DNA of 64,000 bases from Acidobacteriaceae bacterium (GCA_036490815.1 DASXDF010000006.1:17419-81418); one strand, 5' to 3'. Positions 45,346 to 51,300 are shown, counted from the first letter of the stretch. Program-made: numbers and translations. Notes: generated from the sequence alone by a model not told the origin.

Positions 45346-48300
45346 ATGGCAACAGCGGCCCAGCCGTCTCCCAAGTCCAAGACCTCCCCTAAAAGTCCGC
45401 CCGCCAACGGCACTGACACTGCGGTACCCGATTATCTGCCCATCATTTTGATGGGCCTTCAGACCATGAAGGATGGCGACTTCAGTGTTCGCCTCCCTGG
45501 ATCGTGGACGGGGCTTGCCGGCAAAATTGCGGACCACTTTAATGAGATCGTCTCCGCCAACGAGCAGATGGCCCGCGAACTGAAGCGCGTTGGCCAGGCC
45601 GTGGGCAAAGAGGGCAAGACCCGCGAGCGGATCCGCGTCCCGCGCCACCTGGGCGCATGGGACGAAATGGAAACCTCGGTCAACACGCTGATCGAAGATC
45701 TGCTGCGCCCGACTACGGAAGTTACGCGCGCCATCGCCGCTGTCGCCCAGGGCAACCTGACGCAGACGGTCCAACTTGACGTCGACGGCCGACCGCTCGA
45801 AGGCGAGTTCATGCGCTCCGCCACCATCGTCAACACCATGATCCAGCAGCTGGGCATTTTCACTGCCGAGGTCACGCGCGTGGCCCGCGAAGTGGGCACC
45901 GAAGGCAAACTCGGCGGCCAGGCCATGGTGCCTGGAGTCGCCGGAACCTGGAAGGACCTTACCGACTCGGTCAACTCTATGGCCTCGAACCTTACCGGCC
46001 AGGTCCGCAACATCGCCGAAGTAGCGACCGCCGTCGCATCAGGAGACCTTTCCCGCAAGATTACTGTCGATGTCCGCGGCGAAATCCAGCAGTTAAAAGA
46101 AGCCATCAACACGATGGTCGACCAGTTGCGCTCCTTCGCTTCCGAAGTAACGCGTGTGGCCCGCGAAGTCGGCACTGACGGCAAGCTCGGCGGTCAGGCA
46201 GTCGTGCCCGGCGTGGCTGGGACCTGGAAGGATCTCACCGACTCGGTCAATGCCATGGCCGGCAACCTCACCGCGCAGGTCCGCAACATTGCGGAAGTCA
46301 CCACCGCCGTCGCACGCGGCGACCTTTCCCGCAAGATCACCGTTGACGTGAAGGGCGAAATTCTCGAGCTGAAAGACACCATCAACACCATGGTCGACCA
46401 GCTCAACGCGTTCGCCGGCGAAGTCACCCGCGTGGCGCGCGAAGTGGGCACTGAGGGCCGACTCGGCGGTCAGGCCAACGTTCCCGGCGTGGCGGGAACG
46501 TGGAAGGATCTCACCGACAACGTCAACTTCATGGCGTCCAACCTCACTGGCCAGGTCCGCAACATCGCCGAAGTGGCAACGGCGATTGCGAATGGCGACC
46601 TTTCCCGCAAGATCACAGTCGACGTGCGCGGCGAAATTCTGCAGCTCAAAGAAACCCTGAACACCATGGTCGACCAGCTCAACCGCTTCGCCGGAGAAGT
46701 GACGCGTGTGGCCCGCGAAGTCGGCACGGAAGGCAAACTCGGCGGCCAGGCCAACGTTCCCGGCGTGGCGGGAACCTGGAAGGACCTTACCGAGAACGTC
46801 AATTCCATGGCCTCCAATCTCACCGGCCAGGTCCGCAACATCGCCGAAGTAACCACCGCCGTGGCACGCGGCGACCTTTCCCGCAAGATTACCGTGGACG
46901 TGAAAGGCGAAATCCTCGAGCTGAAAAACACCATCAACATCATGGTCGACCAGCTCAACGCCTTCGCCGGCGAAGTCACGCGTGTCGCGCGCGAAGTGGG
47001 CACCGAAGGCAAACTCGGCGGTCAGGCGCTGGTTCCCGGTGTTGCCGGAACCTGGAAGGATCTCACCGACTCGGTCAACTTCATGGCCGGCAACCTCACC
47101 GGTCAGGTGCGTAACATCGCCGAAGTTGCAACGGCCGTCGCACGCGGCGACCTTTCCCGCAAGATCACCGTCGACGTGAAAGGCGAAATTCTCGAGCTCA
47201 AAGACACCATCAATACGATGGTCGATCAGCTCAACGCCTTCGCCGGCGAAGTCACCCGCGTGGCCCGCGAAGTGGGCACCGACGGCAAGCTGGGTGGTCA
47301 GGCCGTGGTCCCGGGCGTGGCCGGAACATGGAAGGATCTCACCGACAACGTCAACTTCATGGCCTCGAACCTTACGGGGCAGGTCCGCAACATCGCCGAA
47401 GTGGCAACGGCGATCGCGAACGGCGATCTTTCCCGCAAGATCACCGTCGACGTCTCGGGCGAAATCCTTCGCCTTAAAGAGACCATCAACACCATGGTCG
47501 ACCAGCTCAACCGCTTCGCCGGAGAAGTGACGCGCGTGGCTCGCGAAGTCGGTACAGAAGGCCGGCTCGGTGGACAGGCGAACGTGCCTGGCGTCGCTGG
47601 AACGTGGAAGGATCTCACCGACTCAGTGAACTTCATGGCCGGCAACCTGACCGGCCAGGTGCGCAACATCGCCGAGGTGACAACGGCTGTAGCTCGTGGC
47701 GACCTTTCCCGCAAGATCACCGTCGACGTGAAGGGCGAAATCCTCGAGCTGAAGAACACCATCAACACCATGGTCGACCAGCTCAACGGCTTCGCAGCAG
47801 AAGTGACGCGCGTGGCTCGCGAAGTCGGCACCGAAGGCAAACTCGGCGGCCAGGCAGAAGTGCCCGGCGTGGCTGGAACCTGGAAGGATCTCACCGACAA
47901 CGTGAACTCCATGGCCGGCAACCTCACCGGTCAGGTCCGCAACATCGCTGAAGTGGCGACGGCAATTGCCAACGGCGATCTTTCCCGCAAGATTACGGTC
48001 GACGTCCGCGGCGAAATCCTCCAGCTCAAAGAGACCCTCAACACCATGGTCGAGCAGCTGCGCTCCTTCGCTGCCGAAGTGACGCGCGTGGCCCGCGAAG
48101 TGGGATCGGAAGGCCGGCTGGGCGGTCAGGCGAACGTGCCTGGTGTGGCCGGTACGTGGAAGGATCTCACCGACTCCGTGAACGCGATGGGTGCGAACCT
48201 CACCGCGCAGGTCCGCAACATTGCCGAAGTGACGACGGCCGTGGCGCGCGGCGACCTCTCGCGCAAAATCGCTGTCGATGTCAAAGGCGAAATCCTCGAG

Positions 48301-51300
48301 CTCAAGAACACCATCAACACCATGGTCGACCAGCTCAACGCATTCGCCGGCGAAGTGACGCGCGTGGCGCGCGAAGTCGGCACCGAAGGCAAGCTGGGTG
48401 GCCAGGCGAACGTGCCCGGCGTGGCCGGAACCTGGAAGGACTTAACCGACAACGTCAACGTGATGGCTGCCAACCTCACCGAACAGGTGCGCGGCATCGT
48501 GAAGGTCGTCACGGCGGTCGCGAACGGCGACCTGAAGCAGAAGCTTACGGTGAACGCGAAGGGCGAAGTCGCCGCGCTGGCCGAGACGATCAATAACATG
48601 ACGGACACGCTGGCGACCTTTGCTGATCAGGTGACGACGGTGGCTCGCGAAGTCGGCGTCGAAGGCCGGCTGGGTGGTCAGGCCAACGTGCCTGGCGCCG
48701 CCGGGACCTGGAAGGATCTGACCGGCAACGTGAACCTGCTGGCCGACAACCTCACCAACCAGGTACGCGCCATCGCCGAAGTAGCGACGGCCGTCACCAA
48801 GGGCGACCTCACCCGCTCCATCCAGGTGGAAGCCCGCGGCGAAGTGGCCGAGCTGAAGGACAACATCAACACGATGATTGATAACCTTCGGCTCACGACC
48901 GATCGCAACACCGAGCAGGACTGGCTCAAGACCAACCTGGCTCGCTTTACCGGCATGCTGCAGGGCCAGCGCGATCTTGTGAGTGTAGGACGCATGATGC
49001 TCTCGGAGCTCGTGCCGCTGGTCAACGCACAGCAAGGAGTCATCTATCAGACGGAAAGCCAGTCGGAGACAGAAGAACTCAGCGGGCTCGTTCTGCTCTC
49101 CGCCTTCGCCAACGTCCACGACGGCTACAACCGTGAGATTGCGGTGGGCGAAGGCCTGATCGGCCAGTGCGCTGCTGAAAAGCGCCGCATGCTCATCAGC
49201 GAAATTCCCGGAACGGCGGTGCCCATCCGCTCCGGCCTGTTCGAAACGGTTCCGCGCAGCGTCATCGTGCTGCCGGTGTTGTTTGAAGACCGCGTCAAGG
49301 CCGTCATTGAGCTCGCCAGCCTCAGCAACTTCACCGCATCGCACCTCGCCTTCCTCGATCAGCTCATGTCTTCCATCGGCATCGTGCTCAACTCCATCGA
49401 GGCGACGATGCAGACCGAGGCACTGCTGAAGCAGTCACAGCAACTCGCTACGGAACTGCAGACGCAGCAGAAGGAGCTGCAGCAAACCAACGAGCAGCTG
49501 GCGCAAAAAGCCCAGCAACTCGCCGAACAAAACTCCGAAGTGGAACGCAAGAACCAGGAAATTGAGCAGGCCCGCCGCGCTCTGGAAGAAAAGGCGCGCG
49601 AGCTGGCTCTTACGTCGAAGTACAAGTCAGAGTTCCTGGCCAACATGTCCCACGAGTTGCGCACGCCGCTCAACTCCATTCTGGTGCTCGGCCAACAGCT
49701 TGCCGAAAACCCCGATGGCAACCTGAGCGGCCGCCAGGTGGAATTCGCGCGCACCATTCACGGCGCGGGAACCGACCTGCTCAACCTGATCTCCGACATT
49801 CTCGACCTGTCGAAGATCGAATCCGGAACCGTTTCTGTCGAGCCTGAGGAGCTGTTCTTCGGCTCGCTGCTCGAAGCCGTTTCGCGGCCGTTCCGTCACG
49901 AGGCGGAAAACCGCAAGCTGTTCTTCGAGGTCAAGAGCGATCCGAAACTCGGTCGCAGCCTCGTGACCGATCCTCGCCGCCTGCAGCAGGTGCTGAAGAA
50001 CCTGCTCTCCAACGCCTTCAAGTTCACCGAACAGGGTGGCGTCCGGCTCACCGTTTCCAGCGCGCCTTCGGGGTGGAGCACGGATCACCCCATTCTCTCC
50101 GGCGCCGGTTCGGTCGTCGCCCTCGAAGTCTCCGATACGGGCATCGGGATCCCGGGCGAGAAACAGCGCATCATCTTCGAGGCCTTTCAGCAGGCGGATG
50201 CCGGCACCAGCCGCAAGTACGGAGGCACGGGACTGGGGCTGGCCATCAGCCGCGAACTCGCCAACCTGCTCGGCGGAGAAATTCAGCTTCGCAGCACACC
50301 CGGCAAAGGCAGCACTTTCACGCTGTATGTGCCGCAGACCTATGTCGGACCCGCGGCCTCTCTGCTGCCTGAGAAGAAGGGCTCCTACATTCCCGCGCCT
50401 GCCTTCCTCGCGAGCCCGGCGGTTTCCGAGCCGCGCGTCAGCATCGAAGACGACCGCGAGAACCTGCGGGAAGGCGATACGGTGCTGCTGATTGTCGAAG
50501 ATGATCCGCACTACGCGCGCGTGATCGCCGACCTCTCGCACGACCGCGGATTCAAGGTCCTCGCCGCAATGAGCGGCGCCGAAGCCCTGGCGCTGGCGCG
50601 TGAGTACAATCCGTCAGCTATTTCTCTCGACGTCTTCCTTCCCGACATGCTGGGCTGGACGGTCCTGAACCATCTGAAACAGGATTCCCGCACCCGCCAC
50701 ATTCCTGTGCAGATGCTCACCCTTGACGACGATCGCCGCCACGGCCTGTCGCGCGGCGCCTTCGCCTTCGTCACCAAGCCCACATCGACGGAGGGCCTCG
50801 AAGCCGCGCTGACGCGGATCCACGACTTCTCGATGCCGCGCCGCAAGCGTCTGCTGGTGGTTGAAGACAATCCCGCAGAACAGCTCAGCATCCGCGAGTT
50901 GCTGTGGCACGACGACATCGATATCGACGTGGTCGATTCCGGATCTTCTGCGCTGGAGAAGCTCGATGAGTCCAGTTACGACTGTGCTGTGCTCGATCTT
51001 CGCCTGCCGGACATGAGCGGTTTTGAAGTCCTCGATCAGCTGCGCGGAAACGAAAAGCTCGTCGACCTGCCGGTGGTCGTCTTCACCGGCCGCGAGCTCA
51101 GCCCCGAAGAGGATTCGCGGCTGCACATGCTGGCTCGCAGTGTGGTGGTCAAAGACGTAGAATCGCCCGAGCGGCTGCTGGATGAGACGGCGCTCTTCCT
51201 GCATCGGGTGGTGGCCGATCTGCCGCAGGACAAGCAGCGCATGCTCGACCGGCTGCACCAGTCCGACGAGGCGCTCTACGGCCGCAAGGTGCTGATCGTC

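Follow-up and report, generated by a model that had tools for sequence, protein, structure and literature searches.

Within a 64,000-nt stretch of DNA from Acidobacteriaceae bacterium (GCA_036490815.1 DASXDF010000006.1:17419-81418; hereafter, the window), the gene at 45346..51648 on the plus strand encodes a soluble poly-HAMP hybrid histidine kinase of 2100 aa that resembles AskA and AskB of Myxococcus xanthus. Judged from its sequence and domain order, this protein is a typical representative, not an unusual one, of the kinase-associated poly-HAMP arrays of AskA/AskB type described in the literature. The region studied here very likely encodes the sensor/modulator rod of a hybrid kinase of that family, which is soluble, presumably acts as a homodimer, and is the bacterial counterpart of the fungal group III kinases.

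The gene was delimited by its reading frame, its start signals, an identical database protein, and Pfam matches. The open frame spans 44989-51648, and the true start is almost certainly the ATG at 45346, which has an AGGAG 7 nt to its 5' side. The database protein P0013, annotated 'HAMP domain-containing protein [Acidobacteriaceae bacterium]' and originating from a metagenome-assembled genome, is 100% identical over 2100 aa. The frame is intact: all 2100 codons are open. Kyte-Doolittle means over 19-residue windows reach a maximum of only 1.44; therefore, the protein has no transmembrane helix, as the earlier sequence-only reading had stated. No NCBIfam model represents the poly-HAMP kinase family, and every NCBIfam match was far below its cut-off. 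Searches for tRNA and Rfam families found none in the 64-kb window.

Organization of the HAMP array

On alignment with AskA and with repeat and domain profiles, the array is composed of HAMP1 followed by 12 di-HAMP modules, 25 HAMPs in total. HAMP1 is canonical, of type D1, and covers approximately residues 30-74 (45433..45567, plus strand, boundaries approximate); it is collinear with HAMP1 of AskA in the crystal construct 9trk_A, where it aligns to the segment LRVLTAVRKGDFSVRMP. The first di-HAMP module (45568..45858, plus strand), located with a unit HMM and the 9trk_A alignment, is 97 aa long and consists of the non-canonical HAMP2 and the canonical HAMP3. In HAMP3, the input helix contains a proline ('LLRPTTEV'), and the connector is extended by an insertion of 5 residues. 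The unit HMM first matches at residue 75, and the spacing is 97 residues to the next unit and 92 thereafter. When isolated N-terminal modules were compared with Pfam, they gave either no match or sub-threshold matches only, and HAMP1 alone had no match. Collinearity with 9trk_A nevertheless identifies a D1 HAMP and a C-D2 pair here, in agreement with the three additional N-terminal modules and the total of about 25 that had been proposed.

The remaining HAMPs, HAMP4 to HAMP25, form eleven di-HAMP units of 276 bp, or 92 codons, at 45859..48894 on the plus strand, delimited by the repeat scan, Pfam, invariant residues, and cross-phylum conservation. A motif scan found a unit start every 92 codons, all in frame and with 0 indels, and Tandem Repeats Finder reported the same period of 276 over 45867-48795 (10.6 copies, 79% matches, 0% indels, score 3051), so the eleven in-frame units described from the sequence alone were recovered. 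Their description as exact repeats is correct for period and frame but not for sequence, because the units share 67-87% identity in DNA (64-95% in protein). Differences between units fall mostly on the third codon position (13/11/38 per unit pair for the three positions) and are mostly synonymous, and exact in-register matches between units extend over 38 bp at most. Alignment of the 11 units yields 48 invariant columns, with which the unit consensus quoted earlier agrees; W31, G13, G29, G62, and G74 are invariant in 11/11 units. Two subtypes, each with closely similar variants, account for units 1-9, while units 10 and 11 diverge from them and are specific to their positions.

Each 92-residue unit is, by these comparisons, a di-HAMP module that combines a non-canonical HAMP of type C with a canonical HAMP of type D2. 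A count with HAMP HMMs, proposed in the sequence-only reading, gave 11 stretches for Pfam HAMP and 12 for HAMP_2 on the whole protein. In isolation, the C-terminal half-unit matches Pfam HAMP with an E-value of 8.8e-13 (48.8 bits; cut-off 25). The Gly-rich N-terminal half-unit alone matches neither HAMP nor HAMP_2; the HAMP_2 matches overlap the canonical half, and the divergent half escapes detection by this model. Since the non-canonical half has no Pfam match of its own, its HAMP fold is deduced from homology to the AskA structure: it aligns residue for residue with the group C HAMPs of AskA solved in 9trk. The earlier proposal of two HAMP modules per unit thus holds for both halves, one by profile match and the other by homology.

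Structure prediction with AlphaFold2 was applied to residues 1-447 as a single-sequence, single-chain monomer; the pLDDT was 47.7, which makes the three-dimensional model unusable for judging a four-helix bundle. The secondary structure predicted by the same monomer consists of helices of 33-37 residues and loops of 9-12 residues with a period of 46 residues, a periodicity compatible with such a bundle. This low-confidence model also places a strand at residues 142-146, in the connector region of HAMP3.

Kinase core and receiver domains

The array is followed by a junction helix and a GAF domain (48895..49389, plus strand; GAF_2 at 48970-49389, E 4.1e-14). The junction-helix motif is invariant across 9 homologs from several phyla. 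The kinase core (49624..50337, plus strand) comprises HisKA/DHp at 49624-49827 (E 1.1e-16), with the H-box 'SHELRTPLN', and HATPase_c at 49966-50337 (E 8.7e-29). Three receivers, matched by Response_reg in 3 stretches (E 9e-65), occupy 50479..51627 on the plus strand: REC1 at ~50479-50823 and REC2 at ~50845-51195, both with approximate boundaries, and REC3 at 51289-51627. The phospho-acceptor aspartate is retained in all three (D1762, D1884, and D2031); thus, the catalytic His and Asp residues are intact by sequence. These Pfam matches bear out the order GAF-HisKA-HATPase-REC-REC-REC that had been read from the sequence. Matches to SpoIIID, HTH_8, GatB_Yqey, and Laminin_II were rejected as real domains, as they included zero individually significant Pfam stretches.

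Relation to known poly-HAMP systems

The family was described as kinase-associated poly-HAMP arrays built from HAMP groups D1, C, and D2 (Coles et al., Protein Sci 2026, PMC13446029). Its M. xanthus members AskA (MXAN_0712; PDB 9trj, 9trk) and AskB (MXAN_6735) contain 21 and 31 HAMPs, respectively, whereas the protein studied here has 25. Residues 12-309 are collinear with the AskA crystal construct 9trk_A (6 HAMPs, residues 33-329; E 9.1e-115) in an alignment that takes in the proline kink and the HAMP3 connector insertion; the repeat units match 9trk with an E-value of 6.8e-87. Shared with AskA and AskB are a soluble protein, a D1 HAMP first and then repeated 92-residue C-D2 di-HAMP modules, the HAMP3 proline kink with its insertion, the conserved Trp and capping Gly residues, and an array that leads into GAF and DHp/CA and then into more than one REC domain. 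In the published work, the non-canonical HAMP fold is visible in the AskA crystal structure, the HAMP3 kink and a beta-hairpin are conserved across AskA-like arrays, the Trp and capping glycines are highlighted for kinase arrays, and the family is defined by a poly-HAMP array that precedes GAF, DHp/CA, and one or more REC domains (PMC13446029). The biological setting differs: unlike M. xanthus, the Acidobacteriaceae host has no fruiting-body development to regulate.

The fungal group III kinases (Nik1, Os-1, TcsC, and Bos1) are likewise cytoplasmic hybrid kinases with N-terminal HAMP units of ~92 residues before the kinase core and receiver, but their arrays, with ~5-6 repeats, are much shorter than the 12 di-HAMP modules found here. 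They carry one receiver, signal via Ypd1/Ssk1 to the HOG pathway, and are not known to contain a GAF domain. Membership of fungal group III was therefore rejected for this bacterial gene with 12 di-HAMP modules and three REC domains; the two share a homologous array type. According to Marcos-Torres et al. (Nat Commun 2020, PMC7643160), fungal arrays have 'frequently more than 5' HAMPs, and the fungal link drawn in the sequence-only reading had already been made in the literature, where bacterial arrays and those of group III kinases are treated as the same array type (PMC7643160, PMC13446029).

Chemoreceptor-associated poly-HAMP arrays and the multi-HAMP receptors Aer2 and FrzCD are also soluble, alternate canonical and non-canonical HAMPs, and share tight HAMP-HAMP packing, capping glycines, and zig-zag conformations along the array. 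In contrast to the protein studied here, they are built from HAMP groups A/B, have Phe where kinase arrays have Trp, and lead to a methyl-accepting output domain instead of GAF and kinase. A chemoreceptor-associated array was rejected on these grounds: there is no MCPsignal match, the output is a kinase, and Trp31 is invariant.

Array length among homologs

At least 8000 homologs have the same Pfam set, and the family is encoded in at least 600 species genomes. Among the 80 best-matching genome loci, which come from several phyla, 41 of the 50 complete genes have the same 12 unit matches, that is, a 25-HAMP array. The copy-number survey suggested earlier thus revealed variation, with a few related loci having 9-11 or 14 units and the largest arrays among relatives having 18-19. 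The commonest state among the best-matching loci is 25 HAMPs. The claim that the length and architecture are unusual was not upheld, given a published family, the longer AskB, and these relatives.

Conservation extends to the internal layout. The 97-then-92 spacing recurs in homologs from five phyla, and unit positions are identical in P0035, the one relative checked. The combination of 25 HAMPs, the subtype order ABA...BABAA, and the unique last two units is found in Acidobacteriota, Alphaproteobacteria, Gemmatimonadota, and Polyangiaceae. Relatives that are 94-97% identical, on contigs of up to 4.2 Mb, also have 2100-2106 aa, and independent database clusters with this length number at least 10 (94-100% identity).

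The downstream kinase gene

A gene for a 529-aa kinase with the Pfam domains REC, PAS, HisKA, and HATPase_c lies at 51681..53270 on the plus strand (start ATG 51681), separated from the poly-HAMP kinase gene by 32 nt, and the two are probably co-transcribed. A promoter and terminator scan of 45000-53700 gave chance-level results and is uninformative on operon structure. In M. xanthus, askC is immediately downstream of askB, and a REC-REC interaction was reported between AskA and AskC (PMC7643160). We liken the downstream gene, a receiver-bearing second kinase, to askC by gene position; the domain order of the partner here is REC-PAS-HisKA-HATPase. A REC-first kinase gene is directly downstream in 68 of 74 related loci and is also found directly 3' in loci of Verrucomicrobium, Myxococcales, and Roseateles. 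Upstream Hpt and REC genes were rejected as conserved phosphorelay partners, as they are not adjoining in 83 loci of other genomes; they do recur in a 97% identical relative, which shares the same gene neighborhood on an 878-kb contig.

Proposed function and alternatives

We infer the dimeric geometry of the rod, the rotation mechanism, and the phosphotransfer to the partner as follows. The output helix of each HAMP would be continuous with the input helix of its successor; because of this continuity, the dimer is expected to form one long four-helix bundle, with an estimated length of ~60 nm. Following the published model, alternating HAMP types would pass opposite axial helix rotations from module to module (a 'gearbox', or shifts in bundle stability), and the activity of the GAF-DHp-CA core would be set by this relay along the rod. 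Next, the three receivers would take up phosphate, which would probably also be exchanged, in one direction or the other, with the downstream REC-PAS-kinase, as for AskA/AskB with AskC.

The sequence-only reading, by analogy with fungal Nik1/Os-1, suggested that the array itself senses a physical cue, such as osmolarity, crowding, or temperature. On the one hand, the protein has no input domain upstream of the array and no membrane anchor, poly-HAMP regions of fungi contribute to osmosensing and the fungicide response (PMC13446029), the responses of M. xanthus ask mutants to glycerol and ambruticin are abnormal (PMC7643160), and published models depict kinase-type arrays as strained and dynamic, properties that would be in keeping with a physical sensor (PMC13446029). 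On the other hand, the GAF domain, or the PAS domain of the partner, could be the real ligand sensor, and the small molecule studied in M. xanthus bound AskC, not the poly-HAMP kinases (PMC7643160). By analogy, then, direct sensing by the array is conceivable but rather unlikely.

It is improbable that the rod serves chiefly as a scaffold or as a DNA-binding platform, in line with the reported binding of AskB to the mrpC promoter in vitro, and not as a signal conduit. Besides this binding of PmrpC DNA by AskB, the M. xanthus study reported that AskA and AskB show partial HTH-like matches to Pfam (PMC7643160); similar SpoIIID and HTH_8 matches occur here, and the strongly conserved array length would fit a ruler or scaffold. 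However, those matches have zero significant stretches, overlap HAMP helices, and look like summed weak repeat matches, and the N-terminal tail of this protein is only weakly basic.

The suspicion of an artefactual repeat number created by assembly, or of a pseudogene (276-bp tandem repeats can be mis-assembled from short reads, and unit number does vary in a few loci) is effectively refuted by the 13-33% DNA divergence between units with no in-register identity beyond 38 bp, by the open frame with its mostly synonymous substitutions, by the 12-unit count in related genome loci, and by the near-identical 2100-aa copies present in independent assemblies. A sensor/modulator rod that relays signals to the kinase core is the reading we retain.

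Significance

Because the family is published and has thousands of homologs, the protein has little value as a discovery: its architecture, structure, and relation to fungal group III kinases were already described. Some value lies in its context: in fungi, the kinases related to these bacterial proteins are the targets of phenylpyrrole and ambruticin fungicides. Published work stresses module amplification and loss and mentions a conserved partner for askB-askC only. The constancy of exactly 25 HAMPs and of position-specific units across phyla within one ortholog group could guide experiments (Bradyrhizobium, Myxococcus), and the near-constant REC-first partner kinase could likewise do so in tractable hosts. 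The exact 25 HAMPs, the position-specific subtypes across phyla, and this near-constant neighbor suggest, very tentatively and against the odds as we see them, that array length may be a fixed functional 'ruler' with an obligatory partner kinase and not a freely tunable property. If so, the positions along the rod would each have a distinct function, such as providing a docking site or a calibrated gain, and signalling would really be the work of the two-gene module, which vertical descent or horizontal transfer would have spread.

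Gene boundaries and repeat array

The gene encoding the poly-HAMP kinase was assigned to positions 45346–51648 (+) because its ATG at 45346 is preceded by AGGAG 7 nt upstream and because its product is 100% identical to a 2,100-aa database protein (P0013, [quoted passage not shown]). The open frame extends 357 nt further 5', to 44989, and its 119 extra codons (44989–45345) overlap a lactonase gene on the opposite strand (43974–45140, −); a naive call from 44989 would add 119 spurious residues. One JGI call for this protein (P0014) has 2,124 aa.

Eleven consecutive 92-codon repeats had been proposed from the sequence-only reading, and scanning the translated frame for the unit motif confirmed them: the unit start recurs every 92 codons, eleven times, from exactly 45859 to 48894. 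Tandem Repeats Finder detected a single array at 45867–48795 (period 276, 10.6 copies, 79% matches, no indels, score 3,051). The units have diverged from one another: any two are 67–87% identical in DNA and 64–95% in protein. On average, two units differ at 13 first, 11 second, and 38 third codon positions, with 26.7 synonymous versus 17.6 nonsynonymous codon differences, and the longest exact in-register run that they share is 38 bp. The array is old and under purifying selection. Both recent amplification and mis-assembly are ruled out by the unit divergence, the third-position bias, and the shortness of this longest exact run.

Domain architecture and family assignment

Pfam models identified HAMP (11 stretches), HAMP_2 (12 stretches), GAF_2, HisKA, HATPase_c, and Response_reg (3 stretches) in the poly-HAMP kinase. 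The H-box, SHELRTPLN, is intact, and each of the three receivers retains its acceptor aspartate. Mean hydropathy does not exceed 1.44 in any 19-residue window; the protein is therefore soluble, in agreement with the earlier view that it lacks membrane segments. The suggestion that each unit combines two HAMP-like halves was upheld by profile matching for one half: the C-terminal, canonical half, taken alone, matches Pfam HAMP (E 8.8e-13), whereas the Gly-rich N-terminal half, taken alone, has no match in Pfam, and HAMP_2 merely lengthens the canonical-half match.

A sequence search of the PDB identified 9trk and 9trj, named "histidine kinase, Gcn4p" (E 6.8e-87), and with an N-terminal query residues 12–309 were collinear with residues 33–329 of 9trk_A (E 9.1e-115). 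These structures are 6-HAMP and 4-HAMP constructs, respectively, of Myxococcus xanthus AskA (Coles et al., Protein Sci 2026; PMC13446029). The same work defined kinase-associated poly-HAMP arrays, whose member proteins are soluble and in which a D1-type HAMP is followed by repeated pairs of non-canonical (C) and canonical (D2) HAMPs, all upstream of GAF, DHp/CA, and at least one receiver (PMC13446029). All family-specific details are present in the window protein. As in AskA-like arrays, the input helix of HAMP3 contains a proline (LLRPTTEV), the HAMP3 connector carries an insertion ("[10 protein letters not shown]"), an invariant Trp opens the non-canonical output helix, and the capping glycines are invariant. 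Because of this insertion, the first, N-terminal di-HAMP module (45568–45858) has 97 rather than 92 residues. One D1 HAMP and 12 C-D2 modules give 25 HAMPs, the number the sequence-only reading had approximated, in contrast to 21 in AskA and 31 in its paralogue AskB (PMC13446029). The poly-HAMP kinase is an uncharacterised acidobacterial member of a described, structurally solved family. A single-chain AlphaFold2 prediction, which has low confidence (pLDDT 47.7) and is no test of the bundle, shows helices of 33–37 residues, loops of 9–12 residues, and a 46-residue period, consistent with the published model, as well as a strand at the HAMP3 insertion.

SpoIIID, HTH_8, GatB_Yqey, and Laminin_II all received good whole-protein Pfam E-values over residues 172–1183 (45859–48894). 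These scores add up weak matches to the repeats, and none of the individual stretches is significant. For AskA and AskB, matches of this kind were interpreted as "partial HTH domains" (Marcos-Torres et al. 2020; PMC7643160). The sequence does not support the DNA-binding idea taken from AskB, as neither SpoIIID nor HTH_8 has an individually significant stretch.

Array length and unit identity across phyla

A word-indexed search with the poly-HAMP kinase returned at least 8,000 proteins at E ≤ 1e-50. The best 120 of these are 2,100–2,657 aa long and share the same Pfam set; their hosts belong to Acidobacteriota, Verrucomicrobiota, Burkholderiales, Pirellulales, and Myxococcales. When units were counted with an HMM made from the 11 window units, the window protein gave 12 matches (the 11 regular units and the 97-residue module) and other top homologues 12–18. 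Counts in the best 120 full-length homologues cluster at discrete values, with 12, 14, and 15 common and 16–18 rare, which suggests that array length is fixed separately within each ortholog group. An exhaustive search of 1.84 billion representatives identified 9,331 proteins at E ≤ 0.001, with a maximum of 19 unit stretches in one protein, and at least 600 species genomes (one scanned per species) match the junction and GAF profile.

The best 80 loci contain 50 complete genes, of which 41 have exactly 12 unit matches, eight have 9–11, and one has 14. Hosts of 12-unit genes include Acidobacteriaceae and Terriglobales, Bradyrhizobium and other Alphaproteobacteria, Gemmatimonadales, and Polyangiaceae. 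Culturable carriers of the 25-HAMP ortholog are Bradyrhizobium, Nitrospirillum, and Terracidiphilus. Among the closest related loci, which span several phyla, an array of 25 HAMPs is therefore the commonest state. The anatomy initially proposed (92-residue di-HAMP units, 25 HAMPs, a soluble protein) was largely correct, but the claim that the array is unusually long was not supported, given the equal length of most related genes and the longer arrays elsewhere.

Four elements are position-specific across phyla, namely the N-terminal module, unit 2, and the last two units. Each regular unit of this set is 87–99% identical to its counterpart in another protein, whereas the last two share only 61–73% identity with the remaining units of their own protein. 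Two subtypes can be distinguished among the internal units. With the two terminal units included, their order in the window is ABABBABABAA, and the outer positions, ABA...BABAA, are kept in nearly all 12-unit homologues. The array has therefore not been homogenised by concerted evolution; its positions retain individual identities. The whole 2,100-aa protein is 73–75% identical to homologues from Verrucomicrobium spinosum and a Myxococcales metagenome-assembled genome (P0055, P0049, and P0119), and a 300-residue junction/GAF segment is 73–75% identical in Bradyrhizobium loci (L042–L083). Such cross-phylum identity is very high for a signalling protein and suggests horizontal transfer or very strong constraint.

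Genomic neighborhood and partner kinase

A 529-aa REC-PAS-HisKA-HATPase_c kinase (51681–53270, +) begins 32 nt past the stop codon of the poly-HAMP kinase. A REC-first kinase also lies directly downstream in three distant loci, those of V. spinosum, the Myxococcales metagenome-assembled genome, and Roseateles, where the REC domain and the following helix are 41–46% identical to those of the window partner; in 68 of 74 related loci with the 3' end present, the first 160 partner residues are at least 60% identical. By gene position, this arrangement resembles that in M. xanthus, where the gene for AskC (MXAN_6734) directly follows askB. In that species, two-hybrid testing showed an interaction of the AskC receiver with Rec3 of AskA, and ambruticin was bound by AskC, not by the poly-HAMP kinases (PMC7643160). 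It is reasonable to regard the conserved pair as a candidate functional unit. At the locus of a 97%-identical relative (L084, 14163–15919), the annotated partner is just a 244-aa HisKA-HATPase fragment, and an odd minus-strand call covers the 5' part of the gene; the cause may be a frameshift or sequencing error in that assembly and not genuine decay.

Upstream of the poly-HAMP kinase are genes for a PAS-GAF-PAS histidine kinase (40351–43032, +), a single-domain receiver (43190–43570, +), and an Hpt protein (43585–43923, +). This phosphorelay set (40351–43923) is retained in the 97%-identical relative; in the 83 loci from other genomes that were inspected, it does not accompany the poly-HAMP kinase gene, so a role as dedicated partner is improbable. 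In V. spinosum (L001, 4760–5311) and the Myxococcales genome (L002, 38–238), the poly-HAMP kinase gene is closely preceded by small DUF5985 genes; a scan of small ORFs upstream of the window gene gave no such match. An ARPP-1 family gene (55379–56662, −), followed by genes for a sigma-70 region-4 protein (56556–57515) and a zf-HC2 anti-sigma-like protein (57512–58639), is ordinary context.

Signaling model

The best-supported reading of the poly-HAMP kinase is the published model of kinase-associated poly-HAMP arrays. The array would form a dimeric rod of concatenated four-helix bundles, with an estimated length of about 60 nm, in which two alternating HAMP types would permit opposite helix rotations; rotation, or a shift in bundle stability, would travel to the GAF-DHp-CA core and set kinase output, followed by a multi-receiver phosphorelay that probably involves the partner kinase. 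As for the input, it is possible that the array senses a physical cue, an idea drawn only by analogy with fungal kinases; GAF or PAS ligands are equally plausible. Just two points are mildly new: array length and unit order are fixed across phyla, and the partner kinase is present downstream of the poly-HAMP kinase in nearly all cases.
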